Positions 6,862-30,971 of a stretch of DNA of 64,000 nt are shown here, one piece after another (position 1 is the first letter of the stretch; every line of letters begins with the position of its first letter). The notes beneath the pieces were generated by a model. That model searched no databases and was not told where the DNA came from. It saw only the letters and a program-made list of their open reading frames with translations. Origin of the DNA: Thermodesulfobacteriota bacterium (GTDB taxonomy: Bacteria; Desulfobacterota; Desulfomonilia; UBA1062); NCBI GenBank assembly GCA_036834365.1, contig DAITOA010000001.1, positions 15,892 through 79,891 of the forward strand, read 5' to 3'. The position numbers and the translations under genes were made by a program.

Positions 6862-8553
6862 ACTGTGATCTCCTCTGTGTATAGACTCATTCTAGAATTC
6901 CTCGAAATCGTCTTCGAATTCGGATACTGTTTCGGTTTTTGCCGGTTCCATGCGTGTTTTGTGCTGGGGCTGTTTTTTCGTTGGGGATTTCTTTGTCCTG
7001 GTTGATTCGGTCTCGCGGGTGACCTTGAAGCGGTCCACGGTATCGGCCAGGTCTTTGGCCTCGTTGCTGAGGCTGTCCGATGTGCTGGCGAGTTCCTCCA
7101 CCGTGGAAGCGTTCTGCTGGGTGGTGGTGTCGATCTGGGCGATGGCCCGGTTCAGCTCGTCCACGCCTGAAGCCTGCTCGCTGGATGCCGCGGCGATCTC
7201 CTCCATGACCTGGGAGAGGTCCTGGATGTGCCTGATGATCTGTTCCAGGGACTCCCCGGATTTCTTCACCATGATGTCGCCAGCGGCGATCTTGTTCACC
7301 GTGTCCTCGATGAGGGCCTTGATCTGGCGGGCGGCCTCCGCCGACCTTTGGGCCAGTGCCCGTACTTCTTCGGCGACCACGGCGAATCCTTTACCGTGCT
7401 CGCCAGCCCGGGCGGCCTCGACGGCGGCGTTGAGGGCCAGGAGGTTGGTCTGGAAGGCCACCTCGTTGACCGTGACGATGATGTCGCCGATCTTCTTGGA
7501 TGCGGCGGAGATCTCGCTCATGCCGAGGACGAGCTCCTGGGCGGCTTCTCCGCTGGAGCCGGCCATGCGCACCATCTCCGTGGCCTTCTGGCGGCCGTCG
7601 GTGGCGTTCTCGGCGTTGTGTTTGATGGAGGAGGTCATCTCTTCGATGGTGGCCGCCACCTCTTCGATGGCCGATGCCTGCTCCTGGGTGGCCTGTGAGA
7701 GGCCCTGGGCTCCGGCGGCCACCTCCTTGGTGGCGGAATCCACCTGGAGCGAGGAATCCTTCACCCTGGTGATGACCTCTTCGAGGTTCTCCACGAAGGT
7801 GTTGAACCAGGATGCGATCTCTCCCACCTCATCGGTGGAGTTCACCGGCAGCCGCTTGGACAGGTCGGCCTCGCCCTGCGCTATGTCCATCATGCTGGAT
7901 GATATCTCCCGAGCCCTCCTGGCTATCTTGCCGGCGAAGAGTGCGCCGAGCACGGCCACGACGATGGCGGTGATGAGGAGGAAAATCAGGAGCTCCATCT
8001 GGAGGCTGCGGACCGCTGCGAGGGCCTCGGATGAGGGGACGGCGGCCCAGACGATCCAGTCCAGGGGTTTGATGTATGCAAGGTAGCTTATCTTGCTGAC
8101 CCCGCCGAAGGTGTAGTCCGATCTTCCCTGCTTCTTGTCGACGGCCGCCCTTACCCAGTCGTAGGTCTCGTAAAGGGTCTTGTTGTTGCGGAGTTCCGCC
8201 TTCGGGTGGTAGACACAGGTGCCGTCGGGCTGGAAGATGGCAAGGTACCCGGTGTCGAAATACTTTTCCTTGGCGGCCTCCTTGATGAGGTCGGCCTTGA
8301 GGGACTTCATGAGCTGTTCTTTGATGATGTCCAGGTTACCCTCGATGGAAGCGCTTCTCACCTCGGCCATCCTGGCGTAGGAATCCACCTTCACCTTGAG
8401 ATACTCGAATGCCTGGTTCTTCAGATGTCCGCTGATGCTTATGCCTACATAGATGATAACGACAACAAGCGGTATCAAGCCTGCGGAAAGGATCAGGGCC
8501 GTGAGCTTCTCGCGAAGTTTCCATCGTATGCTCATACTGTGATCTCCTCTGTG
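5219..8553. repeat. Perfect tandem direct duplication, 2 x 1661 bp (5219..6879 and 6893..8553) separated by a unique 13-nt junction (6880..6892). Each unit carries RBS plus entire MCP CDS.
   Basis: ORF pairs 5218..6861/6892..8535, 5276..6412/6950..8086, 5554..6024/7228..7698, 6662..6850/8336..8524 have identical translations at a constant +1674 offset. Flanks diverge at TAA vs TAG stop and after the shared 18-nt actgtgatctcctctgtg. Confidence 0.9.
6892..8535 (-). CDS. Methyl-accepting chemotaxis protein (copy 2 of 2, identical)
   Basis: Translation is 100% identical to copy 1 (547 aa). All internal antisense ORFs are also identical at an offset of 1674 nt. Confidence 0.9.
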   Translation of the reverse strand: MSIRWKLREKLTALILSAGLIPLVVVIIYVGISISGHLKNQAFEYLKVKVDSYARMAEVRSASIEGNLDIIKEQLMKSLKADLIKEAAKEKYFDTGYLAIFQPDGTCVYHPKAELRNNKTLYETYDWVRAAVDKKQGRSDYTFGGVSKISYLAYIKPLDWIVWAAVPSSEALAAVRSLQMELLIFLLITAIVVAVLGALFAGKIARRAREISSSMMDIAQGEADLSKRLPVNSTDEVGEIASWFNTFVENLEEVITRVKDSSLQVDSATKEVAAGAQGLSQATQEQASAIEEVAATIEEMTSSIKHNAENATDGRQKATEMVRMAGSSGEAAQELVLGMSEISAASKKIGDIIVTVNEVAFQTNLLALNAAVEAARAGEHGKGFAVVAEEVRALAQRSAEAARQIKALIEDTVNKIAAGDIMVKKSGESLEQIIRHIQDLSQVMEEIAAASSEQASGVDELNRAIAQIDTTTQQNASTVEELASTSDSLSNEAKDLADTVDRFKVTRETESTRTKKSPTKKQPQHKTRMEPAKTETVSEFEDDFEEF

Positions 8554-12190: not shown

Positions 12191-13060
12191 ATGAAGAACG
12201 CATTCATACTTGTCATCACCGGTCTGTCAGGGTCCGGAAAGTCGACGGCTCTCAAGGCCATTGAGGATGAGGGCTTCTTCTGCATGGACAACATGCCCAT
12301 CGACCTCATGGACAAGTTTCTCGAGCTCTATGAGTCGGCGTCCTTCACTATCCACAAGGTATGTATATGTATGGATGCCAGGGCAGGTGCACCATATTTT
12401 GCCCAGAAGGCCCCCTTGCTCATAGCCCAGCTTCGGAATCTGACGGAGAATGTACGGCTCATCTTCCTGGAGTCAGGCAAGGAAAACCTCCTGAATCGGT
12501 ACAAGGAAACGAGGAGGAGGCATCCGTTGAGCGAGTCGTACCCGAACCTGCTCGATGCCATCGAGGCAGAGGTAGACCTGCTGGCGCCGCTTCGAGGGAT
12601 TGCCGATTTCATCGTGAACACCTCACAGCTCAATGTTCACCAGCTTGCAGCAAGGATCAAGGAGATCATCTCGACGGAAGATCGGTCCAGAGATATGTAC
12701 ATTGAGGTCAGTTCGTTCGGTTTTAAAAAGGGGATCCCCATGGACTCCGACATCGTCATGGACGTCAGGTTCCTCCCGAATCCGTATTTCGTCGACGAAC
12801 TCAAGGATAAAACCGGGTCAGACAGGGAGGTAAAAGACTTCCTGCGGTCGTCAGAAGTCTATGAACAATTCCTCTCGAAATTCAAGGACCTCATCAGTTT
12901 TATCCTTCCGCTCTGCAAGAAGGAAGGCAGGTCCTATCTCAATATCTCCATAGGTTGTACCGGCGGAAGGCACAGGTCTGTAGCCATTGCGGAAGAGATC
13001 AGGCAGGCAATAGAGGATGCCGGGTATCCAAGCAGGCTGAAGCATCGTGACATCGTATGA
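12191..13060 (+). CDS. rapZ: RNase adaptor / nucleotide-binding protein RapZ (YhbJ)
   Basis: 289 aa, P-loop VITGLSGSGKSTALKALED at N-terminus, RapZ-typical length and C-terminal domain. Confidence 0.85.
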   Translation: MKNAFILVITGLSGSGKSTALKAIEDEGFFCMDNMPIDLMDKFLELYESASFTIHKVCICMDARAGAPYFAQKAPLLIAQLRNLTENVRLIFLESGKENLLNRYKETRRRHPLSESYPNLLDAIEAEVDLLAPLRGIADFIVNTSQLNVHQLAARIKEIISTEDRSRDMYIEVSSFGFKKGIPMDSDIVMDVRFLPNPYFVDELKDKTGSDREVKDFLRSSEVYEQFLSKFKDLISFILPLCKKEGRSYLNISIGCTGGRHRSVAIAEEIRQAIEDAGYPSRLKHRDIV

Positions 13061-13074
13061 GGAGGTTTTAATCT

Positions 13075-13488
13075 ATGGTCGGTATCATTGTTGTCGCGCA
13101 CGGTGATCTTGCACGTGCATTCGAGGAAACAGCCCAGATGATCGTGGGGCCGACAGAGGCCTTCAAAGCCTGTTCCTTTGTGCAGGGTACGGACGTAGAT
13201 GACCTGAGAAGGCTGCTGAAGGCATCCATCAAAGAAGTGAACAGGGGTGAAGGTGTCATCATTCTTACTGACATGTTCGGCGGCACCCCGTCCAATATCA
13301 GCCTGTCATTTTTGGAGAATGGGAAGATCGAGGTGATCACCGGGGTTAATCTCCCCATGGTGATTACAGCGCTTACCAAGAGAAAAGGGAAGGAAATATC
13401 TGAACTGGCTCGCTTGTTGAAAGAAGGGGGCTCGAAGAATATCCATATCGCTTCAGAGATCCTCGCAACGAATGTGGCTGAAAAATGA
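13075..13488 (+). CDS. PTS mannose/fructose/sorbose-family EIIA component
   Basis: 137 aa, MVGIIVVAHGDLA... (EIIA-Man fold with active His in VAHG). Confidence 0.8.
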   Translation: MVGIIVVAHGDLARAFEETAQMIVGPTEAFKACSFVQGTDVDDLRRLLKASIKEVNRGEGVIILTDMFGGTPSNISLSFLENGKIEVITGVNLPMVITALTKRKGKEISELARLLKEGGSKNIHIASEILATNVAEK

Positions 13489-13973
13489 ATGTATTGCTCG
13501 TCAGAGTGGATGACAGATTCATTCACGGGCAGATCCTTGAATCATGGATACCTCACCTGAAGGCCCAGGGCGTCATCGTTGCCAATGATGGTCTTGCTGG
13601 CGATCAGTTTCAGAAGACCATCATGTCCATGGCGATCCCCGACAGGATAAAGCTCAGGATCGTATCTCTGGATGAGGCCCTCAGACTGAGGGATGACTGT
13701 GATTTCAATGAAAAACGAATCTTTGTCATCGTGTCCAGCATAAAGGATGCCCACCGTCTGTTTGTGGGGGGTTTTCCATTCACCCGGCTCAACATCGGGA
13801 ACAACAAGTCCACGACTGAATCAAGGCAGATTTCCTATTCTGTTTGGGTCGACCGCGAAGATCTCCGGCTTGTCAGGGAACTCCTGGACAAAGGGCTTGA
13901 GGTGACGCTTCAATCCGTTCCCCGTGAGCGTCTTATTGACATGAGATCTATTCTTGATATGGTAGATCTATGA
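13485..13973 (+). CDS. PTS mannose-family EIIB component
   Basis: 162 aa, LVRVDDRFIHGQIL motif (phospho-His). ATGA overlap with the EIIA gene. Confidence 0.8.
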   Translation: MNVLLVRVDDRFIHGQILESWIPHLKAQGVIVANDGLAGDQFQKTIMSMAIPDRIKLRIVSLDEALRLRDDCDFNEKRIFVIVSSIKDAHRLFVGGFPFTRLNIGNNKSTTESRQISYSVWVDREDLRLVRELLDKGLEVTLQSVPRERLIDMRSILDMVDL

Positions 13974-14644
13974 TCTTGACCGGATTTCTCGGGGTGCTCG
14001 CCGGCGCCCTTCTGTGGATGGACAGGGTCTTCGTGTTTCAATTCATGATCAGCAGGCCCATGATCATGGGTCCCTTGATCGGCCTTGTCATGCATGATCT
14101 GCATGCCGGGCTCTTGGTGGGCCTTTCCCTGGAGCTTCTGTGGCTGAATGCACCACCCGTTGGTGCATATCTCCCCAATGACGAAAGCTTCTGCACCGCC
14201 GTAGGAGTCCCGGCGGCTGTTCTTGCCGGGTCTTGGGCTTCACCGTCTCAGGCGGCGGGATTGGCCATCCTCCTTTGTCTGCCGGCAGCCCTCGTGGGGA
14301 GGACTCTCGACATGCGGCTGCGGACAATGAACGAGGAGCTCTTGGATGTAAACGAACGCATGTCCGAGAAAAAGATATCACAAGCCATGGTCAAGGCGGT
14401 CCTCCGGTCTTTCATTCTTGCCCTTGTGACGCTCTGTGCATGTGTCATGATTGCCGATGTCATGGTCATTCACGTCGGGAAGATTTTCCCTGATGCGGTT
14501 CTCGCCTCGCTCCCTGTCGTTCCTTTCGCTTGCGTGCTGATCGGTCTGGCGGCCCTCGTATCCCGGGAAATGCCCAGGAGGTCGCATGTAGGCATGTTCG
14601 CCCTGGGTCTCAGCCTGGTGCTCCTGCTCACATGGATCGTATAA
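13970..14644 (+). CDS. PTS mannose/sorbose-family EIIC-like membrane component (short)
   Basis: 224 aa polytopic membrane protein resembling ManY/LevF-type IIC. No IID gene follows. Confidence 0.65.
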   Translation: MILTGFLGVLAGALLWMDRVFVFQFMISRPMIMGPLIGLVMHDLHAGLLVGLSLELLWLNAPPVGAYLPNDESFCTAVGVPAAVLAGSWASPSQAAGLAILLCLPAALVGRTLDMRLRTMNEELLDVNERMSEKKISQAMVKAVLRSFILALVTLCACVMIADVMVIHVGKIFPDAVLASLPVVPFACVLIGLAALVSREMPRRSHVGMFALGLSLVLLLTWIV

Positions 14645-15843
14645 TTGTTCGGACGGCGCTCCCTGAGGACATCGCCGATGTCGTTGCCATCGAGCGCAGA
14701 TCCTTCACATCACCGTGGGACGAGGAGACTTTCGCGACGACCCTTGAGGACGGGCGGTCTATTGCAATCCTGGCCATGGATGATGACGTGGTGATCGGAT
14801 ATTGCATTGCGCTGAGGCTGACTTCCATGGTTCATGTTCTGAACCTGGCGGTTCACCCTGATCGCCGGGGAAAGGGGATCGGAAGAAGGCTCATCCAGGA
14901 GATCTTGAGGGAAACAGCAGCACATGGCAAGTTGTGTGCAGTGCTCGAAGTGAGACGGTCCAACGTTCAGGCCCGGTCTCTCTATACATCCATGGGATTC
15001 TCGCATGTGAGCACCTGGCATAGGTACTATTCAGATACTGATGAGGATGCGGCTATTATGGTGAAGGATTTAAGACCACAGACGGCCCATGATGTGACAT
15101 GTGCCATCGCACATAATGTCGAGGTGGCGGATGGCACATTTCATCTCGTGCTTGAGGGTGAGGTTCCTCGAGGGGATCCCGGGCAGTTCGTCATGGTGCA
15201 GGTAAGCCAGGGCAGCGAACCGTTTCTTAGGAGGCCTCTGGCCATACTCGGGCAGAAAAGCTCGGAGATTGAATTACTCTATAAAATTAAAGGTTACGGA
15301 ACTCGACTGCTCTCGCGGAAAAGAGCCGGTGAACTGGTGAGGGTGCTCGGACCCTTGGGAAAGGGGTTCGGCCGGAGAGCTGCAGGACAGATAATCTATA
15401 TGGCTGGAGGAACAGGGCTACCCCCCTTGCTGGCTCTTGCGGAACATGTCCGACAGGGGGTGTTCATCCTCGGGGCAAAGACGAAAGGTGATCTCCCTTT
15501 GTTGGAAAGGATACAATCGATACCGAACACCCGCAATGTCATCACGACTGAAGACGGGTCATTCGGATGCAAGGGGCTGGCGACGTATATCCTGAGAGAT
15601 CTTCTCTCAGATATGCCTGAAGGTGATGATATCATCCTGTATGCATGCGGGCCCGAGGGCATGCTTCGAGAAGGAGCACGGATGGCTGCACAAAAGGGGG
15701 CTTACTGTGAACTGTCCCTTGAAGAGCGCATGTCATGCGGGTTCGGAGCGTGTGCCGGGTGTGTCGTAAGCACAAGAAAGGGAACCAAGAGGGTATGCCG
15801 CGAAGGTCCTGTATTCGCGGCCGATGATATCAACTGGAGCTGA
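14632..15843 (+). CDS. pyrK: Fusion protein: N-terminal GNAT acetyltransferase (RimI-like) + C-terminal dihydroorotate dehydrogenase electron-transfer subunit PyrK
   Basis: One continuous frame. Residues 1-145 carry GNAT motifs (VVAIERRSFTSPWDE... RRGKGIGRRLI). The remainder is the PyrK FAD/NAD-binding fold plus 2Fe-2S cysteines (CGFGACAGCVV). Start taken at ATG 14632 (13-nt overlap with EIIC stop); the ORF track begins at 14530. Confidence 0.7.
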   Translation: MDRIIVRTALPEDIADVVAIERRSFTSPWDEETFATTLEDGRSIAILAMDDDVVIGYCIALRLTSMVHVLNLAVHPDRRGKGIGRRLIQEILRETAAHGKLCAVLEVRRSNVQARSLYTSMGFSHVSTWHRYYSDTDEDAAIMVKDLRPQTAHDVTCAIAHNVEVADGTFHLVLEGEVPRGDPGQFVMVQVSQGSEPFLRRPLAILGQKSSEIELLYKIKGYGTRLLSRKRAGELVRVLGPLGKGFGRRAAGQIIYMAGGTGLPPLLALAEHVRQGVFILGAKTKGDLPLLERIQSIPNTRNVITTEDGSFGCKGLATYILRDLLSDMPEGDDIILYACGPEGMLREGARMAAQKGAYCELSLEERMSCGFGACAGCVVSTRKGTKRVCREGPVFAADDINWS

Positions 15844-15845
15844 AT

Positions 15846-16757
15846 ATGGATACTTCTGCAAGGATTACACCCGACCTCATATTGAAAAACCCTGTCATGA
15901 GCGCATCGGGAACCTTTGCATACGGCGAAGAGTTTGCCGAGTTCTTTGATCTGGCTCTCCTCGGGGCTGTGGTGACCAAGGGATTGTCGCTGGCTCCCAA
16001 GACCGGGAATCCTACGCCGCGCATTGTGGAGACTGCGTGCGGAATGATCAATTCCATAGGCCTTGAAAACATAGGGATACCAGGATTCATCAAGGACAAG
16101 CTCCCCTTCCTGATGCAATTCGATACCTGCGTAATAACCAACTTTTTCGGAAGCACCGAAGATGACTATGTTCGAGCGGCAGAGGCCCTGAATGTGCATG
16201 GTGTCTCGGCTCTGGAGATGAATGTGTCCTGCCCGAATGTGAAACAGGGCGGTATCGAATTCGGACGGGACCCGGATGCACTTCACACCCTCGTGAAGAG
16301 GGTAAGACAGGTATGCGGGAAACCTCTCATCGTGAAGCTCTCCCCCATGGTTACGGATATAAGGATGAACGCATTGGCGGCAGAGGAGGCAGGGGCCGAC
16401 GCACTCACCTGCATCAATACTGTGCCGGCAATGGCCATAGATGAAAAGGTCCGAAGGCCTATGCTCGGAAACATTACCGGTGGACTCTCAGGCCCTGCCA
16501 TCAAGCCCATCGCCCTCAAGATCGTATGGGATGTCTCCAGGGAGGTCTCCATACCCGTCATTGCGTCAGGAGGTGTTCTGACAGCACAGGATGCCATTCA
16601 GTTCATGCTGGCAGGAGCCACTGCCGTACAGGTCGGCAGCGGCGGCTTGAGGGATCCGCTATGCTATCCTGAGATTATCAAAGGTATCAGCACTTATCTT
16701 GATGAGAACCAGATACAGGACATATCAGATCTCATAGGAGGTCTCCTGACGGATTGA
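15846..16757 (+). CDS. pyrD: Dihydroorotate dehydrogenase catalytic subunit (class 1B)
   Basis: 303 aa, ...SASGTFAYGEEF..., NTVPAMAIDE... Start 3 nt after the pyrK stop. Confidence 0.9.
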   Translation: MDTSARITPDLILKNPVMSASGTFAYGEEFAEFFDLALLGAVVTKGLSLAPKTGNPTPRIVETACGMINSIGLENIGIPGFIKDKLPFLMQFDTCVITNFFGSTEDDYVRAAEALNVHGVSALEMNVSCPNVKQGGIEFGRDPDALHTLVKRVRQVCGKPLIVKLSPMVTDIRMNALAAEEAGADALTCINTVPAMAIDEKVRRPMLGNITGGLSGPAIKPIALKIVWDVSREVSIPVIASGGVLTAQDAIQFMLAGATAVQVGSGGLRDPLCYPEIIKGISTYLDENQIQDISDLIGGLLTD

Positions 16758-16843
16758 TCTGGATCCGGTTCATGATTTCATTGTTATGGTATTCTTCCTC
16801 TGATTGCTTTGATCCATACCCTGCCTGAAGGAATTCATCACAT

Positions 16844-19168
16844 GTGAAGCATGGGATTTTTTCCGGGGGGGGGGGATCATACGTGTTGCGTGATATGGGC
16901 AGGAACCATCCTTTTGTTGTTGTCGTTGCAGGTCTGTGCTGCGGAATGCTTGTCAGATGGGCTGATGGGTACGGCATTGCGTTCTGTGGTGTCCTGCTTG
17001 TTCAGCTGGTGTCAAGAGAACGGTTCATCCATGCTCTCATCGGGATATTACTCGGATGTGCCGCGGCATGTTTCGCTCCGGTTTGGATTCAAATCGATGA
17101 TGGTCCCCACCACGTCAGGGGTATTGTGGCTTCTACGGAATTTAGCGGGGGTTCTTTCCGCATGGCCCTCAGGGATGTAGCCGTCGACAGAAGTCACATC
17201 AGAGGCAACGCCTTGATAAGTGTTTATCGGAACCCGCCCATGGTTCAAGCCGGTTCCCGGGTGTCCGGTGTGGTTGACATACGGCAGCCGAGGGGCCTGG
17301 GGAACTTCGGTGAGTTTGATTATAAGAAACATCTCCTTGCAAAGAACATCACACTGAAGGGTTCTGTGGATGATGGTTCTACGCTGACAGTCTCTGGGGG
17401 TAAAGCGGCTGCGGGAGTCAAGAAGAGACTGCTTCTGGTCTTTGATCGTTATGCACGCCCTGAGGCTGAGCTCATCAAGGCGATGATCCTTGGGGACAGG
17501 TCAGGCATCACGAACTCTTTGCAGGACAGGTTTAACTCACTCGGCATCATGCACCTTATAGCAATTTCGGGGCTCAATATAGGTATAGCCATGGCCATAG
17601 GGTATGGTATTTTGTTCAACGTCCTGAGGTTCCTGACTCCCATTTCACTCCGGATAGACGTTCCGCTGGTTTCCGCTATCGGCGGCATGGGTGCAGCGAT
17701 TGCCTATACGGTCTTTGTAGGCCCCGAGGTGCCGACCCTCAGGGCATGCATAATGGCGGTAAGCTGTACGATGGGGATCTTGTTTCTGAGAAGATCAGAC
17801 GTTTTTGATGAGCTTGCCTTAGCAGGGTTGATTATCCTGGTGCTCTGGCCGGGGTCTCTGTATTCGGCGAGCTTTCAGCTCTCTTTCAGTGCAGTGCTCG
17901 GGATTGTCGGTATTGTGGCAAAGACGGGGAATGCCCCAATTTGGTTCAGATTTGCAGTCGTAACACTGGCGGCAGGAGTATTCACGATGCCGCTCGTGGT
18001 CTACCTGTTCGGATTTGTATCTGCTGCGGGACTCCTGGCGAACTGTATCATTGTGCCATTCTTCAGTCTGGTCATCATGCCCCTTTCCTTGATCGGCATG
18101 GCAGCGCATCTTATCTCGGCCCCTCTGGGCAAGATCATTTTTTCATTATGCATGGACGCAACACATCTCCTGATAGAAGCATGCGATCATTTCGGTTCCC
18201 TGCATCCGGTGCCAAGGCCTTGGGTCGTCTGGGTCTATCTCAGTTACATCGGCCTTCTGACAGCGTTCTTTGGCGAGAAAACCCCATGGAGATCGTATGT
18301 GCTCATTGCCTTAAGTGCCGGTGTCATTGCTTTGCCGATCATACAGCACGCCATAAGGAACAATAGTCCCATGTGCTTCGATTTTCTCAGTGTCGGGCAG
18401 GGCGATTGTTCTCTGGTCACTGAGGGGCCTCATGCTGTTCTCATCGATGCAGGACCGGCCTATTCAAGTTTTGATGCAGGCAGGCAAGTCGTCAGTCCTC
18501 ATCTCCTGCGAAGAGGGATCACCTCGCTCGATGCAGTGATCGTTACCCACATGCATCCCGACCACTGCGGTGGCATTCCCTACATCCTTGAGCGGTTCCC
18601 GGTCGGGCAGCTATGGCTCAATGCCCCGCTGGAAAATAATCCCTGTTTCCAAGAAGTAATACGCATCACAAAAGAGAAATCAATCCCATTGAGATATGTT
18701 TGTCGTGGTGATAGTCTCCGGATCGGAGGAATAACCATGGATGTCCTTCATCCGCAGTACAGGCTTGATCATCATGAAGGCGGAATGGATCAAAACTTGC
18801 AATCCATTGTGGTGATGATACATGATAAGCGTATGAAGGGTCTCTTTATGGGTGACGCAGACATGTATGGCGAACTAATACTGGTGCATATGCAGAAGAA
18901 CATAACAGCTGATGTCCTCAAGGTGGCACATCATGGAAGCGAGAAGTCATGCCTCGATCCGTTCCTGGGTGCGGCTTGTCCGGAAAGAGCGATCATAAGC
19001 TGCGGATTCCGGAACAGGTACGGAGACCCATCGAGAGAAGCCCTTGCGAGACTGGAAAGGCACAGCATATATGTCTACCGTACAGATATTCATGGAGAAG
19101 TCATGGTAACATCTCTTCCTTCAGGGCCGGATGTTAAGTCGGTTCGTGAACCTGCCGATATTCAATAG
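16844..19168 (+). CDS. comEC: DNA internalization-related competence protein ComEC/Rec2 (N-terminal DUF4131, central competence channel domain, C-terminal metallo-beta-lactamase)
   Basis: 774 aa polytopic membrane protein. C-terminal MBL motif VTHMHPDHCGG. Start ambiguous (GTG 16844 vs ATG 16895). Confidence 0.8.
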   Translation: MKHGIFSGGGGSYVLRDMGRNHPFVVVVAGLCCGMLVRWADGYGIAFCGVLLVQLVSRERFIHALIGILLGCAAACFAPVWIQIDDGPHHVRGIVASTEFSGGSFRMALRDVAVDRSHIRGNALISVYRNPPMVQAGSRVSGVVDIRQPRGLGNFGEFDYKKHLLAKNITLKGSVDDGSTLTVSGGKAAAGVKKRLLLVFDRYARPEAELIKAMILGDRSGITNSLQDRFNSLGIMHLIAISGLNIGIAMAIGYGILFNVLRFLTPISLRIDVPLVSAIGGMGAAIAYTVFVGPEVPTLRACIMAVSCTMGILFLRRSDVFDELALAGLIILVLWPGSLYSASFQLSFSAVLGIVGIVAKTGNAPIWFRFAVVTLAAGVFTMPLVVYLFGFVSAAGLLANCIIVPFFSLVIMPLSLIGMAAHLISAPLGKIIFSLCMDATHLLIEACDHFGSLHPVPRPWVVWVYLSYIGLLTAFFGEKTPWRSYVLIALSAGVIALPIIQHAIRNNSPMCFDFLSVGQGDCSLVTEGPHAVLIDAGPAYSSFDAGRQVVSPHLLRRGITSLDAVIVTHMHPDHCGGIPYILERFPVGQLWLNAPLENNPCFQEVIRITKEKSIPLRYVCRGDSLRIGGITMDVLHPQYRLDHHEGGMDQNLQSIVVMIHDKRMKGLFMGDADMYGELILVHMQKNITADVLKVAHHGSEKSCLDPFLGAACPERAIISCGFRNRYGDPSREALARLERHSIYVYRTDIHGEVMVTSLPSGPDVKSVREPADIQ
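16865..16875. repeat. Homopolymeric G11 tract at the 5' end of comEC
   Basis: ttcc-GGGGGGGGGGG-atca. Lies in codons 8-11 of the GTG-initiated ORF (MKHGIFSGGGGS...), or 20 nt upstream of the alternative ATG at 16895. Confidence 0.9.
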
Positions 19169-19217
19169 GATGAACAAGGAGATTGGTTTGTATACGGCGT
19201 CGGGCCCTGCAAGGATT

Positions 19218-19661
19218 ATGACCGGAACATCAGGAATGACGCTCATGGAGGTCATGATCGTTGTGGTGATTATCGGCATCCTCGCTGGCGTAGCCATGCC
19301 CGGAATGATCGGGTGGTTCAGCAAGAGAAGCCTGGACTCCGCATCGAGGGAGATGTTCTCCAATTTCCAGAGGGCAAGGAGCGAAGCGATCACCCGCGCC
19401 ACGAACGTTCAGATCCAAATTGATTCTGGCAATGAATGGTACAGGATTCAGGATGCCAACGGCAATGTGATCGTGCCGCAGACAAACATGCCAGAGGGCA
19501 TAGATCTGGAATCCGCAGCCACGACGACGGGGTTTACCTTCCGTGGTTTTTCTACAACGCCGGAAATTACGGTTACCATCACGAGCGAGGATGCGCCTGC
19601 TGCAGACAACTGGAGAAGAATAAGACTCAACCCCGGCGGAACGGTGAGTATAGAGCCATGA
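19218..19661 (+). CDS. Type IV minor (pseudo)pilin, FimT/FimU/GspH-like
   Basis: Prepilin N-terminus GMTLMEVMIVVVIIGILAGVA. About 147 aa from the internal ATG. The ORF track starts at 19131, overlapping the comEC end. Confidence 0.6.
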   Translation: MTGTSGMTLMEVMIVVVIIGILAGVAMPGMIGWFSKRSLDSASREMFSNFQRARSEAITRATNVQIQIDSGNEWYRIQDANGNVIVPQTNMPEGIDLESAATTTGFTFRGFSTTPEITVTITSEDAPAADNWRRIRLNPGGTVSIEP

Positions 19662-20296
19662 AAAGGTTAATGGTACTGGCAAATAGCAAGGGACTTACCC
19701 TCATTGAGCTGATGATAGTCCTGGTTCTGTCCCTTCTGCTCATGGGGGCAGTTTTCATGACCTTCCAGCTCCAACACAACTCGAGCCGTGCCCAGACCCA
19801 GGTGGCCGCCACCCAGCAGGATCTCCGGGCTGCGATGGACGTTATTGCCATGGACATCATGCATGCAGGTCTGTGTCAGAACCCATCAAGTAGTATTCAA
19901 GGCATACCGACAGGAACCAGCGGCACAAACACCCTTCAGCTTCAGATGGATTATAATGATGACGGAGCAACTACCGGAACAGGCGAACTTGTTACCTACC
20001 GGCTGAATAACGGCAACCTGGAACGCGTCGATGTGAATGCAGGGGTTACCCAGGTCATTGCAAGGAATGTGACGGTTTTGACCTTCCAGTATCTGGGCAG
20101 GACGAAAAGCAACAGTACACAACAGATCGACCCGGGCGGTGGAACCCTCTCCCAGGCACAGGCCAAGGCCGTGAGGTTTATCGATGTGACAATCACCAAG
20201 GAAGGCGAGCAGGTGGACTCCCAGACAGGGAATGCAGTGCAGAGGACTCTGTCGCGCTGGGTCTGCAGGAGGAACGGTGCTATCGATGAGCTCTAG
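19658..20296 (+). CDS. pilW: Type IV pilus minor pilin PilW-like
   Basis: KGLTLIELMIVLVLSLLLMGA prepilin motif, plus ...LRAAMDVIAMDIMHAG resembling PilW. ATGA overlap with the previous gene. Confidence 0.6.
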   Translation: MKRLMVLANSKGLTLIELMIVLVLSLLLMGAVFMTFQLQHNSSRAQTQVAATQQDLRAAMDVIAMDIMHAGLCQNPSSSIQGIPTGTSGTNTLQLQMDYNDDGATTGTGELVTYRLNNGNLERVDVNAGVTQVIARNVTVLTFQYLGRTKSNSTQQIDPGGGTLSQAQAKAVRFIDVTITKEGEQVDSQTGNAVQRTLSRWVCRRNGAIDEL

Positions 20297-20717
20297 AATG
20301 ACGGCGGGTATGGATAAAGGACCTGCAGAAGGGTGTCGCTCCGGTGGATTCACCCTCATCGAGTTGGTCGTGGCCATCCTTGTCTTTGCCCTCGGCATCA
20401 TGGGTATCCTGAAGATGCACCAGGCTTCCGTTCAGGCAAACAACTTCAGCATGCAGCTCACCGAGGCAGTCAATGCGGCGGAAGACCAGATGGAATTTCT
20501 GCGGGGCCTGTCGTTCGACCATAACTCTATGAGCATCGGAGCGCACAATACCACCACGACGATTTCGAGGAACATCCCGTATAACGTTTCCTATCAGGTT
20601 GCTACGACGCCCGGTACCGGGGGCAGCGGACGGACGGTCACCATCAGTGTCACCTGGCAGGAGAAGAACTTGAATCATATGTTCACATTGCCTCTGGTGA
20701 TGGACGAGCTGGATTAA
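20286..20717 (+). CDS. pilV: Type IV pilus minor pilin PilV-like
   Basis: GGFTLIELVVAILVFALGIMG prepilin motif. About 143 aa. Confidence 0.6.
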   Translation: MSSRMTAGMDKGPAEGCRSGGFTLIELVVAILVFALGIMGILKMHQASVQANNFSMQLTEAVNAAEDQMEFLRGLSFDHNSMSIGAHNTTTTISRNIPYNVSYQVATTPGTGGSGRTVTISVTWQEKNLNHMFTLPLVMDELD

Positions 20718-21190
20718 TGCCCATTGAAGGCGGCAGGGAGCTTCAAGAGATGAGGATAAAAGAGATTCTGAAGGATAAGGATGGTGCGGTGCTTATCCTG
20801 GTGCTCATCGTTCTGGTGGCTGCCATCATCCTGGGTGTCATGATGACCAGGTCGGCGACCCTTGAATCGAGGATGGCCGGCAACGAACGCCGCTATATAA
20901 CTGATTTCGCAAATCTCGAGACTGCCGTGAACCTTGTCCTCATACAGAATACCGCTGCTCTGGCGGCCGTCGCAACGACCTCGGGCAATTCCTATACATA
21001 TCCCGATGGAACGCTCCCGGATGGCACGAGTGTAACGGTCACCCTTGAAGACATAAGAAAGCCACCCGTGGGTTCCGGATTTGATCCTTCCTACAAGGCA
21101 AGGTACTATCTCTTTGAGGCCACGGACGACGGTGGCAACCAGAACCTTTCAGTAGGTGCATACAAGGTGTTCCCGCCCATCAATGACTAG
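20717..21190 (+). CDS. pilX: Type IV pilus assembly protein PilX-like
   Basis: 157 aa; N-terminus DGAVLILVLIVLVAAIILGVMMTRSATLESRMAGNERRY is typical of PilX. Confidence 0.55.
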   Translation: MPIEGGRELQEMRIKEILKDKDGAVLILVLIVLVAAIILGVMMTRSATLESRMAGNERRYITDFANLETAVNLVLIQNTAALAAVATTSGNSYTYPDGTLPDGTSVTVTLEDIRKPPVGSGFDPSYKARYYLFEATDDGGNQNLSVGAYKVFPPIND

Positions 21191-21228
21191 AAATGCCTGG
21201 GGACAAGATCAGGCAAAGGAGTGGTGAT

Positions 21229-24200
21229 ATGAGCAGGAAGAGTACATTGCTGGCCATGATCATGGTTCTCCTGCACTGGGGTTGTTTCGTTGGGTTATCA
21301 CATGCCGATGATACGGAGATATTCGGAGGGGCTTCCATTAATGTTCCACCCAACGTTCTGATTATTTTTGATAACTCAGGAAGTATGGCGGAGAATGTCT
21401 GGGTTCAGGCCAGTTCCGCCGATTATGATCCCGCTGTCGAATATTCTGGAAGCTACAGCCTGTCAAGGGTTTACAGTCAGGATTGCAGTGGATGGGGATG
21501 GTGGGATAACTTCGCAAATATCGGATCGAACCACATCGTGGATTCCACCGAGATCTCCTGCACGGAAGCCAGGGAAGCGCTCAATACATACGGGCACTGG
21601 CAGGGGCAGATCAGTGGATCGGGAACCCATGCATGCGGGACAAGCTATTCGTGCAGAAATCTGAGGACAGGCAATTATCGGAATTATCTCGCATCGACCT
21701 CGGGTCATTATGAACAAAAGATCTCTGTGGCGAAGACGACCATAAAGAACCTCATCAACACCACAGACGGCGTGCGCTTCGGCATCATGGTCTTTAACGA
21801 CAGTGAGGGCGGACATGTACTCGCACCCATCGCGACCCGCTCCACTGCCACCGAGAAGGCTACCCTGACCACGCTCATCGACTCGCTCTCCGCCCAGACA
21901 TGGACACCTCTGGCCGAGACCCTGTCCGAGGCCGGGCTGTATTATGCGAGGAAGCAGTCGTGGTTCAATACTGGAGTGGACTATGCAACGGCGTATGACC
22001 CGGCGATCCAGTATAGGTGCCAGAAGAATTATATCGTTTTGATGACTGATGGTGAGTCCACGCAGGACAGGAACAGCAAACTCTGGAGCACAAACTATTT
22101 GAACAGTAAAGTCATCGGAGACTACGACAATGATGCCAGCTCCCACGATGAGTACCACAACAGCGAAGGTGATGCTTATGACAGCTACGGCAGCGATTAC
22201 CTCGACGATGTGGCCAAATTTCTCCGCGATGAAGACCTCCTGACGGGGGTTTCCGATCTAAGCGGGGTTTCGTTCGATGCAACGGATTTCCCTTCACAGA
22301 ATATCATAACCTATACCATAGGGTTTGCCATCGATCATGTTCTCCTCACCGAGGCTGCAGATTCAAGCCACGGGCAGGGTGATTACTTCACTACTTCAGG
22401 CGGTGTCAGTCTGCAGGACATCTTCGAGTCCATCATCGGGAGTATCCTGGAGACCAATTCCCAGTTCATCTCCCCCGTGGTGCCCGTGAACAGGCTGAAC
22501 AGGACCTATGCCGACAACGGATTGTACATCGGCATCTTCGCTCCCGACTCGGATACGGATATGCAGGGGTTGTGGAAAGGCAACCTGAAGAAATTCGGGT
22601 ACAGCAAACAGGGGGAGATCCTCGACCGTCACGGCGTGTTAGCCACAAGCAGTACCGGCGCAATCCTCGAGGGTGCACACTCCGTCTGGGGCACAGAAGT
22701 GACAGGCACCGAGGGCATGACTGTTGACGTCGGGGGCGCTGGTGCGGTCCTGTTGACTCAATCATCGAGGAACTTCAAAACGAACAGCAGCACGGGTATG
22801 GTGCCCTTCAACGCTTCGAACGTCACCGCCGCAAACATGGGTTTGAGCACGGATGCACAGAGGAACGACCTCATCGACTTCGTCACGGCCGGAGGCATAT
22901 ACGCACCTACATACACTGGCACGGATGGAAAGAACCGTGTGTGGATTCTCGGGGATATCATCCACTCCCAACCCGCAGTATACTACGACAAGGTAAACAA
23001 CCGGAACATTATCTTCGTCGGGACCAACGACGGTTTTCTGCACTGCTTCCTGGATAACGACAATGGCACGTCCGATTCGCTCACCGACGATTCAGTCCAG
23101 GAATCGTGGGCATTCGTCCCGTGGGACCTCCTCCCGAATCTCCAATACCTGCCACCAGCGGGGTATACCGCTGAAATCGCGGGCAACTCCACTCACGAGT
23201 ACTTTGTGGATGGATCACCGGTGGTCTACAAGAGCGGGAGCAGCACCTACCTAGCCTTCGGCCTGAGGAGGGGCGGGCTTAATATAACCTCCGGAGGTGA
23301 GCTCACGAACCAGTACTTCATACTGAACATTGACAACTATCAATCCCCGAGCTTCACGGCATCGATATCAAAGAGCATCCTGGGTACAAGCTCAGAGCAG
23401 CTCGGCCAGTCCTGGAGCACCCCTTATTTCAGCACCATCAAGACCGGGGCCAGCACAAGCAGCAAACAGGACGTACTGATCCTTACCGGAGGGTATGACA
23501 CGAACCAGGATAATGACGACCCCGGTACTGCAGACACCAAGGGCAGGGCGGTCTTTGCCGTGAACGCCACTACGGGCGCCCTGATGTCCAACCTGAACTT
23601 CAACTACAATAATTATTCAAAGATGCGGTATTCCATGGTGGATCTCAGGGCTTATGACGACAATGACGACGGCTGCACCGACGTGATCTATGCGCCTTCC
23701 GTCGGAGGTGACCTCTTCGTATTCGATGACAGATCAACGGCCACAGGCACGCCATATGACGGCGTATGGACGAAACGTTTGCTCTTCAGCGCTGCAAACC
23801 GGGGCAGCACGGCGAAGCTCAGGAAGTTCTTCTATGCCCCCGGCATCGCCCAGGAGACCTGGGGGGACTGGGTCTACATCGCCAGCGGAGACCGGGAGCA
23901 CCCGACCGATGCGACCGGAGAGGAAACCACCCCTGCGTACAACCGGTTCTATGCTCTCCGCTACACATGGCCTGCTACCTGGAGTGACGAAGACGATGCC
24001 CTGACAGATTCGGACCTTACCGACGTGTCCACGGACACCCTCCAGGGGACCACCTCGACCCCGTCTACATTGACCGAAGCCGAGAAGGCAGCCCTCCGAC
24101 AGGCACTTTCTTCCAGCGGCAACGGATGGTTCTTTGACCTTGACCACTCAGGAGAGAAAGCGGTATCGACCCCCCTCGTGTACAACAAGGTGGTTTACTT

Positions 24201-24516
24201 TACTACCTTTACCCCGAGCACGGCAGTATCTACGAGCAGCACCGATCCGTGCGGAACCACGGGTGCAGGTACGGCGAGGCTCTATGCCGTGGACTACGAA
24301 ACCGGTGAAGCGGTGTTCTCGGATTTCGACGGCAATTCATCCTCACTGACAGAGGAAGACAGGTCAAAGACCATAGGCTCAGGTATCCCCTCGGAACCCA
24401 CCCTGGTGGTGACCGAACAGGGCACGTTCATTGTTGTGGGTACCGAGGAGGGACCCATCTCTGTTGACACGCAGGAAAAACGTAGCCTTAACCGCTATTA
24501 CTGGTTGAAGCAATAG
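21229..24516 (+). CDS. pilY1: PilY1-like type IV pilus tip adhesin (signal peptide, N-terminal vWA domain, C-terminal PilY1/PilC beta-propeller domain)
   Basis: vWA MIDAS VLIIFDNSGSM at 21361-21390 plus IVLMTDGEST. Calcium-site motif AYDDNDDGCTDVIY (DxDxDGxxD) at about 23651-23690. About 1095 aa from the ATG with a ggag RBS. Confidence 0.8.
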   Translation: MSRKSTLLAMIMVLLHWGCFVGLSHADDTEIFGGASINVPPNVLIIFDNSGSMAENVWVQASSADYDPAVEYSGSYSLSRVYSQDCSGWGWWDNFANIGSNHIVDSTEISCTEAREALNTYGHWQGQISGSGTHACGTSYSCRNLRTGNYRNYLASTSGHYEQKISVAKTTIKNLINTTDGVRFGIMVFNDSEGGHVLAPIATRSTATEKATLTTLIDSLSAQTWTPLAETLSEAGLYYARKQSWFNTGVDYATAYDPAIQYRCQKNYIVLMTDGESTQDRNSKLWSTNYLNSKVIGDYDNDASSHDEYHNSEGDAYDSYGSDYLDDVAKFLRDEDLLTGVSDLSGVSFDATDFPSQNIITYTIGFAIDHVLLTEAADSSHGQGDYFTTSGGVSLQDIFESIIGSILETNSQFISPVVPVNRLNRTYADNGLYIGIFAPDSDTDMQGLWKGNLKKFGYSKQGEILDRHGVLATSSTGAILEGAHSVWGTEVTGTEGMTVDVGGAGAVLLTQSSRNFKTNSSTGMVPFNASNVTAANMGLSTDAQRNDLIDFVTAGGIYAPTYTGTDGKNRVWILGDIIHSQPAVYYDKVNNRNIIFVGTNDGFLHCFLDNDNGTSDSLTDDSVQESWAFVPWDLLPNLQYLPPAGYTAEIAGNSTHEYFVDGSPVVYKSGSSTYLAFGLRRGGLNITSGGELTNQYFILNIDNYQSPSFTASISKSILGTSSEQLGQSWSTPYFSTIKTGASTSSKQDVLILTGGYDTNQDNDDPGTADTKGRAVFAVNATTGALMSNLNFNYNNYSKMRYSMVDLRAYDDNDDGCTDVIYAPSVGGDLFVFDDRSTATGTPYDGVWTKRLLFSAANRGSTAKLRKFFYAPGIAQETWGDWVYIASGDREHPTDATGEETTPAYNRFYALRYTWPATWSDEDDALTDSDLTDVSTDTLQGTTSTPSTLTEAEKAALRQALSSSGNGWFFDLDHSGEKAVSTPLVYNKVVYFTTFTPSTAVSTSSTDPCGTTGAGTARLYAVDYETGEAVFSDFDGNSSSLTEEDRSKTIGSGIPSEPTLVVTEQGTFIVVGTEEGPISVDTQEKRSLNRYYWLKQ

Positions 24517-25031: not shown

Positions 25032-26141
25032 CTAGGGATTCAATATGCGTATGTAAGCGGTGTCTCCCTCGATGGCTATATCGGCAGAGACGACATTCCT
25101 CTGCCTGAGGCTTTCCATGGTATCCTGCAGGTTGCCCTTGAGTTGAACGACATGGCAGATGGTGTGTCCCTGGATACGGGAAACAGTGATCTTCGAAACT
25201 GTGTCCATGGAACGAAGGGCGTTGATGATTATCTGATAGGTATCATTATCGAGGATGCCCTCTATACACAGTGCCTTCTCATTAACTGAGGGGTTTACTG
25301 CAATAACTTTTTTCGCGATCTCCGCCCTGATCTGGACCATGACGGCCGTGATCAGCAGCTCATTCATCATCCGCTGATCCACCGTTCCCTTGAGCGAGAC
25401 CGATTCTGATATGAGATGCTGCCTGGTCTTGGGATCCACCAGGGATATATCGAGGCGTGAATCCAGAGTCGCTGCATCAATAGATTTATGAGTGATCAGC
25501 CCCGATAAGACGAGGTCAATACCTTGGGATCCTCCCAGGATCACTGCTTTATCCGATCCTGAAGGAGGGGGGGTGATTTGCTGGGGGGGGTCTGCAATAT
25601 TTTCACCTACATTCCTGAACATCGTTGCCATCTGTGATTCAAAGGGAGAGTAGCCCTTCGGCGTGCTCGTCGTCCACCACTCGTACCGATCCGACGGCCC
25701 GGGTCCGCGGCATGTTATGACGAGAAGTATTCTAGGTCTCATGGCATACGGTGTCATAAGTGATTGTCCCTGAAGCCAGTTCCTCAGGGGCGTGTCATTG
25801 AGAGTGATGTCAATGGTAATCATCAACAGGGTATCCTGTTGTGACCGTGATACGATCTTGTATTGAATGATATCCTGGATCCCCCGGGAGGATACAAACC
25901 CCTTGAGTTTCTGGGTCAGTTCAAATGATGAACTTCCGGGGACAACCCTGAGGGCAAGCTCGAGATAAACCTTGTATAATGCATCATCAAATGCTGTCTT
26001 CTCGGCCTGGGAGGCATTGTTTGCCACAAGAGAACTGATGCCTGTAGCTGTCAATGATACATCGGCTCGTGCGGGATTCTGGCTGAAGAGTATCAAAAAC
26101 AGCCAGAGAATCCCGCACGTGCATAGGCGGGGTAGATTCAT
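25032..26141 (-). CDS. Hypothetical secreted/periplasmic protein, co-transcribed with hfq
   Basis: 369 aa with N-terminal signal peptide (LWLFLILFSQNPARA). Proline-rich linker PPQQITPPPSG encoded by G7/G8 tracts (25567-25573, 25583-25590). Start overlaps the hfq stop. Confidence 0.5.
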   Translation of the reverse strand: MNLPRLCTCGILWLFLILFSQNPARADVSLTATGISSLVANNASQAEKTAFDDALYKVYLELALRVVPGSSSFELTQKLKGFVSSRGIQDIIQYKIVSRSQQDTLLMITIDITLNDTPLRNWLQGQSLMTPYAMRPRILLVITCRGPGPSDRYEWWTTSTPKGYSPFESQMATMFRNVGENIADPPQQITPPPSGSDKAVILGGSQGIDLVLSGLITHKSIDAATLDSRLDISLVDPKTRQHLISESVSLKGTVDQRMMNELLITAVMVQIRAEIAKKVIAVNPSVNEKALCIEGILDNDTYQIIINALRSMDTVSKITVSRIQGHTICHVVQLKGNLQDTMESLRQRNVVSADIAIEGDTAYIRILNP

Positions 26142-30518: not shown

Positions 30519-30970
30519 AGGTAGTACTTTTGGAGACAATCGAAGGCCTGGGCAGTGTAGGCCAAGAGGTGAAGGTAAAGGACGGCTATGCCCGGAACTT
30601 TCTTGTTCCGAAGGGGCTGGCTCTTCTGGCGACAGATAGAAACCTGAACGCATTCAAGGACAAGATACAGGCGCGCATCCGTTCAGAGGCAAAATCCCGC
30701 GAGCATGCCATGAAGCTTTCGGAAGAGATCTCGTCCGTGTCCCTGAAATTCGCCGTGAAAACGGGGCAGGAGGGTAAGCTTTTCGGTTCCGTCACTGCAA
30801 CGGACATCTTCGACGCCCTCAATGGGAAGGGGTTCGATGTAGACAAGAAGAAAATCCACCTGCAGGAGCCCATCAGGCATGTGGGGACCCACGAGGTTGC
30901 CGTCAGGCTCTTTCCCGAGGTGACGGCGCACATCAAGGTGGAGGTTGTTCCAGAATCACAGGGCGAGTAG
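30515..30970 (+). CDS. rplI: 50S ribosomal protein L9
   Basis: MKVVLLETIEGLGSVGQEVKVKDGYARNFLVPKGLA... Confidence 0.9.
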   Translation: MKVVLLETIEGLGSVGQEVKVKDGYARNFLVPKGLALLATDRNLNAFKDKIQARIRSEAKSREHAMKLSEEISSVSLKFAVKTGQEGKLFGSVTATDIFDALNGKGFDVDKKKIHLQEPIRHVGTHEVAVRLFPEVTAHIKVEVVPESQGE

Positions 30971-30971
30971 A

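Follow-up and report, generated by a model that had tools for sequence, protein, structure and literature searches.

Does a run of 11 G residues at the 5' end of comEC switch DNA uptake on and off? This question was raised by an earlier note on a 64-kb stretch of DNA (the window hereafter), which belongs to an uncultured anaerobe known from MAGs. There, the tract was placed inside the GTG-initiated reading frame of comEC, where it would encode GGGG and where a change of one G would frameshift the protein and thereby switch transformability. The G11 homopolymer is indeed found at 16865-16875 on the forward strand, exactly as described, and it is the longest homopolymer of the window and its sole run of more than eight nucleotides (the next longest being G8 at 25583, G8 at 31214, and A8 at 43140). 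With 11 residues, it also exceeds the length of approximately G7-8 from which contingency loci are expected to slip at a high rate. Judged by composition alone, the occurrence of such a tract is unremarkable: 100 dinucleotide-preserving shuffles contained a mean of 0.79 G10 matches, and two or more matches were present in 20 of them. What goes beyond chance is its position, which is that of the Shine-Dalgarno (SD) element of orthologous comEC genes, and its length polymorphism between assemblies.

The identification of the gene as comEC is confirmed by both Pfam and TIGR00361. The CDS (16883-19168, forward strand, GTG start) encodes 761 amino acids, and its product displays, in order, an N-terminal, OB-like DUF4131 domain (PF13567; 7e-16), a polytopic Competence domain (PF03772; 5e-50), and a C-terminal metallo-beta-lactamase domain (PF00753; 1e-17), which together represent the complete three-part ComEC/Rec2 architecture. 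The score against the ComEC_Rec2 equivalog model TIGR00361 is 298.8 bits, well above the cutoff of 190.05. The metal-binding motif HxHxDH of the metallo-beta-lactamase domain is present in the translation as THMHPDHCGG, and H556, D560, and H561 are invariant in an alignment of 16 sequences. A protein annotated by NCBI (P0001; 761 aa) is 100% identical to the ComEC of the window. On the basis of these domain and model matches, the gene is a full comEC/rec2. It is preceded by pyrD (15846-16757, forward strand), identified by Pfam and a TIGR-type model as encoding the catalytic subunit of dihydroorotate dehydrogenase 1B, and by an intergenic region of 125 nt (16758-16882). Downstream, co-oriented genes extend across 19170-24516, the first of which begins 2 nt past the comEC stop; according to Pfam they encode GspH/FimT-like, PpdB-like, and N_methyl minor pilins, followed by a PilX_N protein, and among them a protein of approximately 1,100 aa has no Pfam match. 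Orthologous loci have a matching downstream gene order, with conservation of the pyrK-pyrD-comEC-minor pilins synteny. Judging from this arrangement, comEC and the downstream pilin genes probably form one operon with the poly-G SD at its head, and the proximity of comEC to type IV minor pilin genes in the genome supports a putative role of this ComEC in natural transformation.

Proximity to a competence gene does not by itself make a long G run a contingency locus; what decides is where the run lies with respect to the true start codon. NCBI's identical protein, P0001, starts at GTG 16883, and approximately 17 orthologues (41-57% identity) start with M/V-L-R-x-x-G at the equivalent codon. Sixteen orthologues of 757-776 aa begin with ML(R/H/S/L)xxG (e.g. 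MLRHVG...), collinear with GTG-TTG-CGT-GAT-ATG-GGC in the window. By homology, then, GTG 16883 is the true start of comEC, with TTG 16886, the pick of some gene callers (P0122/P0124), as a possible alternative at a spacing of 10 nt from the tract. Two further candidates were rejected. ATG 16895 is replaced by ATT in the sister lineage L096, and the SD would sit 19 nt away from it; GTG 16844 would add an extension that is found in no orthologue and is out of frame both in L096 and in the G10 and G9 alleles described below. The main value of the present analysis lies in this correction, namely that the longest-ORF start GTG 16844 and ATG 16895 are both wrong. The tract does lie at the 5' end of comEC, as had been stated, at a distance of 7 nt upstream of GTG 16883, the layout being TTTTTTCC-GGGGGGGGGGG-ATCATAC-GTG with the spacer ATCATAC at 16876-16882 (forward strand). 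The earlier note had also considered that the tract might be upstream of the gene and alter initiation: the upstream location is borne out, yet the start concerned is GTG 16883 rather than ATG 16895, and the distance is 7 nt rather than 20 nt.

A distance of 7 nt is within the usual SD spacing of approximately 5-10 nt. In eight orthologous lineages, an SD-type motif occupies the site equivalent to the tract, 5-8 nt ahead of the start: GGGGAGG in L083/L084, AAGGAG in L085-L087, GAGGAGG in L088-L090 and again in L099/L100, AGGAGGA in L091, GGGGGG in L003, and GGGGGAG in the sister lineage L096. A search of genome contigs with generic patterns for related loci had contributed one useful relative, L003, among the matches listed, and that of metagenome contigs added L099 and L100 only. 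Assuming the canonical anti-SD ACCUCCUUA (the window is devoid of a 16S gene), the tract is predicted to form a duplex of 7 bp, including G-U pairs, with an energy of -10.9 kcal/mol. Under the same assumption, the predicted pairing is equal for G9 to G13 (-10.9 kcal/mol, saturated at G9), and the orthologous motifs bracket it with values of -8.2 to -13.0 kcal/mol. The start-proximal pairing registers are retained at every tract length, while the number of registers reaching -10.9 kcal/mol rises with length. The G tract is thus predicted to be the SD of comEC, and comparison with the orthologous motifs identifies it as a lineage-specific expansion of an SD G-run. The resemblance to the orthologous SDs of Desulfomonilia/Syntrophales-type MAGs is close, as these are likewise G-rich, complementary to CCUCC, and located 5-8 nt before the M-L-R-x-x-G start. 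The present element differs in having, in place of the GGAGG-type motif, an unbroken run of 9-11 G, which requires G-U wobbles, offers several registers, and is polymorphic in length.

The tract length as assembled varies within the species. Among same-species consensus contigs, G11 was found four times (the window, L001/L092, L093, and the contig behind the 774-aa protein P0121), G10 three times (L002, L094, and L095), and G9 once (L097). Contigs with the same neighbouring proteins were collapsed, in one case six of seven, and the tract-length sample is a lower bound (at least seven contigs). Assemblies of the species thus show the tract in three lengths, and the orthologous lineages possess shorter SD motifs in its place. 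An intact ComEC ORF of 761 aa is present in G11, G10, and G9 alleles alike, contrary to the claim that a change of one G would frameshift ComEC. That claim assumed translation from GTG 16844, and the longest ORF (16844-19168; GTG start, 774 aa) does contain the tract in frame, where it codes for GGGG, with ATG 16895 in the same frame; for this ORF the earlier description is correct, and for the real CDS, which starts at GTG 16883, it is not. In favour of GTG 16844, an AAGGA motif is located 11 nt upstream of it, and it was chosen in one Prodigal call (P0121, 774 aa). If this codon were used, the gain or loss of a single G would turn transformability on or off. In the G11 allele the frame indeed reads through the tract. 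However, all orthologues start at the equivalent of GTG 16883, each with its own SD directly upstream; the equivalent of GTG 16844 in L096 is out of frame; and the G10 and G9 alleles, which make up half of the contigs, would be OFF, yet they possess the complete 761-aa ORF and an SD. The 13-codon N-terminal extension (16844-16882, forward strand), in frame with comEC in the G11 allele only, is accordingly regarded as spurious. Hence, this model is highly improbable, and on the alignments and alleles at hand a frameshift switch within the CDS is refuted: contingency tracts of that kind lie inside the CDS, and here the conserved start is downstream of the tract.

The variation is concentrated on the tract. 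Across approximately 3 kb of seven contigs, the only differences are the tract and one SNP, so that no other site in the locus is as variable as the tract; across 12.3 kb of three assemblies, nine SNPs are accompanied by a sole indel, again the tract. A 22.3-kb comparison of the window with L098 revealed nine SNPs, no indels, and an unchanged G8 at 25583. A metagenome contig collection was scanned for the locus by exact pattern, a variable gap being allowed, and returned no matches, which implies that this collection does not contain the species; JGI samples do contain it. The earlier note had allowed for a homopolymer-calling problem, and rightly so: the tract lengths are those of consensus contigs of metagenome assemblies, in which real slippage is indistinguishable from miscalling. 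It may therefore be asked whether the tract is real and of one fixed length in vivo, with G9, G10, and G11 arising from slippage during PCR or Illumina sequencing and from the calling of a consensus. Several of the contigs probably share a study or even reads (the JGI identifiers 3300009772 and 3300009775 are close, and some assemblies are third-party re-assemblies), and the only indel in 12-22 kb falls on the longest homopolymer, where errors concentrate. Furthermore, poly-G templates give specific Illumina failures, and tract lengths in databases can be unreliable, with G11/G12 mixtures having been observed in clonal cultures (PMC9187656). Against this explanation, the three lengths recur over at least seven distinct contigs, with roughly equal counts of G10 and G11, and a consensus at approximately 14x (the figure in the contig name) usually gives the majority length. 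For tracts of at least G9 in C. jejuni, Neisseria, and Bifidobacterium, the in vivo mutation rate is approximately 1e-4 to 1e-3 per division, and some real heterogeneity is therefore to be expected here. We thus consider a purely artefactual origin of the length variants unlikely. Whichever applies, the assignment of the tract as an SD is unaffected.

How, then, would a variable SD behave? We favour, with some reserve, the explanation that the tract is an expanded SD whose length variation is neutral or weakly quantitative and does not constitute an on/off switch. From an ancestral SD of the GGGGGAG or GGGGAGG type, the G-run would have grown in this lineage to a homopolymer of 9-11 nt. Such a long G homopolymer is both intrinsically slippage-prone and hard to sequence, which would explain why G9, G10, and G11 are reported for one species; slippage in vivo is predicted. 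Any gain or loss of a G would fall on the distal side of the homopolymer, so that its 3' edge and the 7-nt spacer stay fixed and the SD-to-start geometry is preserved. Every allele would retain at least seven pairable Gs at 7 nt from the start codon, with the reading frame untouched, and we would therefore anticipate a neutral effect on ComEC expression or, at most, a weak quantitative one. With geometry and frame constant over the observed lengths, the proposed on/off switch of transformability finds no support and is unlikely; the G tract is probably mutable and harmless, and not a frameshift switch.

Known systems are instructive in this respect. The phase-variable genes of Campylobacter jejuni, the pilus genes bbr_0113 and bbr_1889 of Bifidobacterium breve, and pilC of Neisseria are surface- or pilus-related and resemble comEC of the window in that they possess G9-G12 at their 5' ends, with slippage leading to mixed lengths. 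In those genes, however, the tract is within the CDS and sets the frame ON or OFF, whereas here it is outside the CDS and the ORF is intact in all alleles. For SSRs located in a promoter or an SD, the effects anticipated are quantitative rather than ON/OFF (PMC13317227). The closest counterpart is the poly-G tract of Moraxella catarrhalis uspA1, which is 8-12 nt long, precedes the ORF without being part of the CDS, varies in length in populations, and exerts graded control instead of switching by frameshift (Lafontaine 2001, PMC95038, via PMC7302503). A change of about 20-fold in uspA1 mRNA between G10 and G12 is given there, which argues against neutrality in that a tract in the 5' region can have a large effect that is difficult to foresee (PMC7302503). 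The two cases differ in that the uspA1 effect is on the mRNA level and the tract is not described as an SD in that literature, while the present tract occupies the SD of an environmental anaerobe known from sequence alone.

The uspA1 precedent also lends weight to an explanation in which the tract, as an SD or another 5'-UTR element, tunes or gates comEC and the coupled minor-pilin genes through its length, at the level of translation or of transcription. In bacterial 5'UTRs, RNA G-quadruplexes (G4s) near the ribosome-binding site (RBS) can alter translation, as in E. coli (PMC11087576), and one possible route is that at G11 or longer a self-contained two-tetrad G4 might occlude the SD. G11 is the shortest run that allows such a fold: GG-G-GG-G-GG-G-GG is exactly 11 nt, with four G-columns of at least two and loops of at least 1 nt. 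ViennaRNA with G-quadruplex energies gave a UTR MFE of -56.1 kcal/mol, as against -51.3 kcal/mol without them, for G11 or longer, with ++.++.++.++ spanning the tract, and no G-quadruplex was possible at G9 or G10. The observed alleles straddle this predicted threshold, a point that also counts against neutrality. On the other hand, the two-layer G4 energy of ViennaRNA is extrapolated and probably too stable, and the RNA fold of the pyrD-comEC UTR is no better than that of shuffles (z = -0.5). RBS-masking G4 reporters are said to have been described by Wieland and Hartig in 2007 and by Holder and Hartig in 2014; published 5'UTR cases are engineered three-tetrad structures, mostly upstream of the RBS, and differ from the predicted two-tetrad homopolymer fold considered here. 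Guo and Bartel reportedly found in 2016 that bacterial transcriptomes are depleted of folded rG4s, which counts against this route. It is also possible that a longer tract, with its growing number of isoenergetic distal SD registers, would dilute productive initiation. A graded effect of tract length on expression is therefore possible in terms of these models. A contingency tract may also act from a -35/-10 spacer or an operator, where its length alters promoter geometry. Scans of 16600-17000 detected no sigma-70-like promoter (the one promoter type sought) and no terminator, and no Rfam family was found across the 64-kb window.

We regard such tuning or gating as rather unlikely. The organism is an uncultured anaerobe and not a host-adapted pathogen, and the tract is the single one of its kind in 64 kb, which gives no sign of a contingency-locus lifestyle. 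Its strongest form, a selected, slippage-driven translational rheostat heading the comEC and type IV minor-pilin operon, in which G10 or shorter would expose a strong SD and G11 or longer would fold it into a two-tetrad G4 or dilute initiation on distal registers, is distinctly improbable. We did not find described in the literature either the location and mechanism of such an SD-embedded homopolymer switch on translation initiation, or phase variation of comEC or of a homopolymeric SD. Should translation be tuned by the tract, this would represent a rare case of slippage acting via the ribosome-binding site and, in an environmental, non-pathogenic anaerobe, of DNA uptake with a heterogeneity resembling phase variation, and populations of this anaerobe would contain subpopulations of differing DNA-uptake capacity.

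Finally, a possible third route would have the tract length set the frame of ATG 16851 or GTG 16844, generating a short uORF, a long overlapping ORF, or an N-terminal extension; a precedent is the repeat-dependent leader-peptide switch reported for the Pil1 pilus (PMC3894217). As derived from the sequence, the frame of ATG 16851 does vary with the tract: with G11 it opens a 109-codon ORF (16851-17180, forward strand) that overlaps comEC out of frame, with G10 a 13-codon uORF that stops at TGA 16891-16893, and with G9 or G12 it is in the comEC frame. This ORF is a candidate only, and ATG 16851 has no good SD at a usable distance. Initiation at GTG 16844 would be expected to yield the peptide MKHGIFSGGGGSY. 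Gene callers assign five N-termini to the one ComEC protein (757, 760, 761, 770, and 774 aa), because the homopolymer length alters which upstream codons are in frame, and the 770-aa form called by Prodigal starts at the L096 equivalent of ATG 16851.

The G11 run spans exactly 16865-16875, and no other homopolymer in the 64 kb of the window (G+C 55.9%) exceeds 8 nt; the runners-up are G8 at 25583, G8 at 31214 and A8 at 43140. Composition alone does not make it significant: across 100 shuffles that preserved dinucleotides, G10 matches averaged 0.79 per shuffle, and 20 of the shuffled sequences had two or more. The earlier note had placed the tract within a GTG-initiated frame, and this mechanical part of the observation holds: the longest ORF crossing it (16844-19168, 774 aa) starts at GTG 16844, and the tract codes GGGG there. 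The gene is a complete ComEC/Rec2, with DUF4131, Competence and metallo-beta-lactamase domains, an HxHxDH motif in its translation and a TIGR00361 score of 298.8 bits (cutoff 190). Of the two G8 runs, 25583-25590 lies inside a long minus-strand ORF (25032-26141) and is the same in L098, a second assembly; 31214-31221 lies inside a long plus-strand ORF (30945-32321).

The orthologue comparison indicates that comEC most probably starts downstream of the tract, at GTG 16883, with TTG 16886 as a residual alternative. The identical NCBI protein P0001 (761 aa) starts at GTG 16883. Furthermore, all 16 orthologues (757-776 aa) start with ML(R/H/S/L)xxG, which aligns codon-for-codon with GTG-TTG-CGT-GAT-ATG-GGC of the window. 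The nearest other lineage, L096, whose ComEC (P0126) falls in the same 90% identity cluster, has the counterpart of GTG 16844 out of frame and an ATT at the codon aligned with ATG 16895. Neither of the starts proposed earlier is therefore conserved, and both were rejected. Five N-termini have been called for this one ComEC (757, 760, 761, 770 and 774 aa), because the homopolymer length sets which upstream codons share its frame. The gap between pyrD and comEC also contains a minimal start-stop ORF, ATG-TGA (16842-16847, plus strand), with an AAGGA 9 nt ahead of it (16828-16847 in all); L096 has the identical element.

The window reads TTTTTTCC GGGGGGGGGGG ATCATAC GTG at 16857-16885, which leaves 7 nt between the tract and the start codon. 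Orthologues display textbook Shine-Dalgarno (SD) motifs at this position, namely (motif and spacer before the start) cccGGGGAGGtgtcagcATG in L083/L084, gaAAGGAGtcagagcATG in L085-L087, atGAGGAGGtcatgccATG in L088-L090, tcAGGAGGAgtcgagccATG in L091, tcGGGGGGtcacggaaATG in L003, atGAGGAGGtcttgtcATG in L099/L100 and CCCCCCGGGGGAGcatacGTG in the sister lineage L096, and this positional correspondence suggests that the tract is the G-run of the SD, expanded in this lineage. Against an anti-SD assumed to be canonical (ACCUCCUUA), the tract is predicted to form a duplex of -10.9 kcal/mol with 7 pairs, including G-U wobbles, a value inside the span seen for the orthologues (-8.2 to -13.0). The predicted energy saturates at G9 and above, and start-proximal registers are present at all lengths. 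Complementarity, spacing and positional homology thus all point to a tract that would work like an SD. In L096, C6 abuts G5 (2246-2260, CCCCCCGGGGGAG) where the window has T6-CC-G11; this self-complementary block overlaps the SD of L096 and brings an upstream ATG into frame, leading to the 770-aa gene call.

Relatives were compared for the tract, with lengths read from consensus contigs of the same species, some of which may share samples. G11 occurs in the window, L001/L092 (GCA_035593585 / ERZ795048), L093 (JGI 3300009772) and the Logan contig behind the 774-aa protein P0121; G10 in L002 (GCA_035396385), L094 (SRR5007222) and L095 (JGI 3300009775); and G9 in L097 (JGI 3300025611). Seven contigs compared over ~3 kb differ only by the tract and one SNP, three assemblies over 12.3 kb by 9 SNPs and the tract as the single indel, and the window and L098 over 22.3 kb by 9 SNPs and no indels. 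No other site of the locus thus varies nearly as much as the tract. These differences between consensus contigs reflect either in vivo slippage or homopolymer miscalling; clonal cultures hold real G11/G12 mixtures, and Illumina failures on G tracts are documented as well (PMC9187656).

Classic ON/OFF phase variation proceeds by a frameshift within the coding sequence or by altered -35/-10 spacing. The former had been proposed here, with a change of one G frameshifting ComEC; with the start at GTG 16883, however, every length allele encodes the intact 761-aa ORF, which refutes this route. Gain or loss of a G leaves the 3' boundary of the homopolymer and the spacer behind it in place, so that in every allele the frame of comEC and the distance from SD to start codon stay the same. 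The spacing route is unsupported, since a promoter scan of 16600-17000 returned no sigma-70-like promoter. The suggestion of a contingency locus switching transformability likewise falls, because the defining location was tested and the tract lies outside the coding sequence. The finding is chiefly of value as a correction, both of the start site and of the frameshift reading.

Tract length might instead tune or gate expression by any of three routes, a G-quadruplex (G4), distal SD registers or the upstream ATG 16851; taken together, we consider these unlikely. When G-quadruplex energies are included, ViennaRNA predicts a two-tetrad G4 made of the tract alone, and only from G11 upwards (GG-G-GG-G-GG-G-GG, 11 nt). 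This fold covers the SD, and with it the minimum free energy of the UTR drops from -51.3 to -56.1 kcal/mol; G9 and G10 cannot form it, and the observed alleles fall on both sides of this threshold. The two-tetrad energies are, however, extrapolated, and bacteria are reported to disfavour folded RNA G4s. Lengthening of the tract also adds equal-energy SD registers farther from the start and shifts the frame of ATG 16851, which shares the comEC frame at G9 or G12 but opens a 13-codon uORF at G10 and, at G11, an overlapping ORF of 109 codons. This ATG lacks a usable SD. Precedents are G4s in bacterial 5'UTRs, which can alter translation (PMC11087576), and the G(n) tract upstream of M. catarrhalis uspA1, which shows that tracts of this sort can affect mRNA about 20-fold (PMC7302503). 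That selection maintains a slippage-driven translational rheostat at the head of a comEC/minor-pilin operon appears more doubtful still.

The best explanation, and a reasonably probable one, is an expanded, hypermutable and functionally near-neutral SD. This fits the C. jejuni literature, where simple sequence repeats in an SD or promoter context are viewed as acting quantitatively rather than discretely (PMC13317227), and the tract belongs with the known intergenic hypervariable homopolymers. Our literature search, of limited coverage and hence weak evidence of absence, found neither comEC tied to poly-G phase variation nor an SD-embedded homopolymer switch.

The window derives from a Desulfomonilia/Syntrophales-type "Deltaproteobacteria bacterium" that is uncultured and known through MAGs. 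Upstream of comEC lie, in order, a RapZ-like gene, PTS EIIA/EIIB/EIIC(man) genes, a RimI-PyrK fusion and pyrD, the last separated from comEC by 125 nt. The RapZ-like, EIIA(man), EIIB(sorbose) and EIIC(sorbose) genes (12191-14644, plus strand), beside which no EIID was called, directly precede the pyrK/pyrD-comEC block and are kept in relatives. The unusual 403-aa fusion (14632-15843, plus strand) joins a GNAT/RimI-type acetyltransferase domain to PyrK, the electron-transfer subunit of dihydroorotate dehydrogenase B, and is present in every orthologous locus examined. Downstream, beginning 2 nt past the comEC stop, are four type IV minor-pilin/pseudopilin genes (GspH/FimT-like, PpdB-like, N_methyl and PilX_N) and a ~1,100-aa protein (19170-24516, plus strand). 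This protein, which gave no Pfam hit, is possibly PilY1-like; its start varies by gene caller (929, 1095 or 1107 aa). Orthologous loci whose ComEC is 41-57% identical keep this gene order, and the linkage of comEC to minor pilins is conserved across the family. Elsewhere in the window, two tandem minus-strand genes (5218-6861 and 6892-8535) encode 547-aa methyl-accepting chemotaxis proteins (dCache_2, HAMP and MCPsignal in L098) that are 100% identical in protein and 99.9% in DNA, with a repeat period of 1,674 bp and an exact match between 5219-6879 and 6893-8553; either the gene was duplicated in tandem very recently or the assembly is at fault here.
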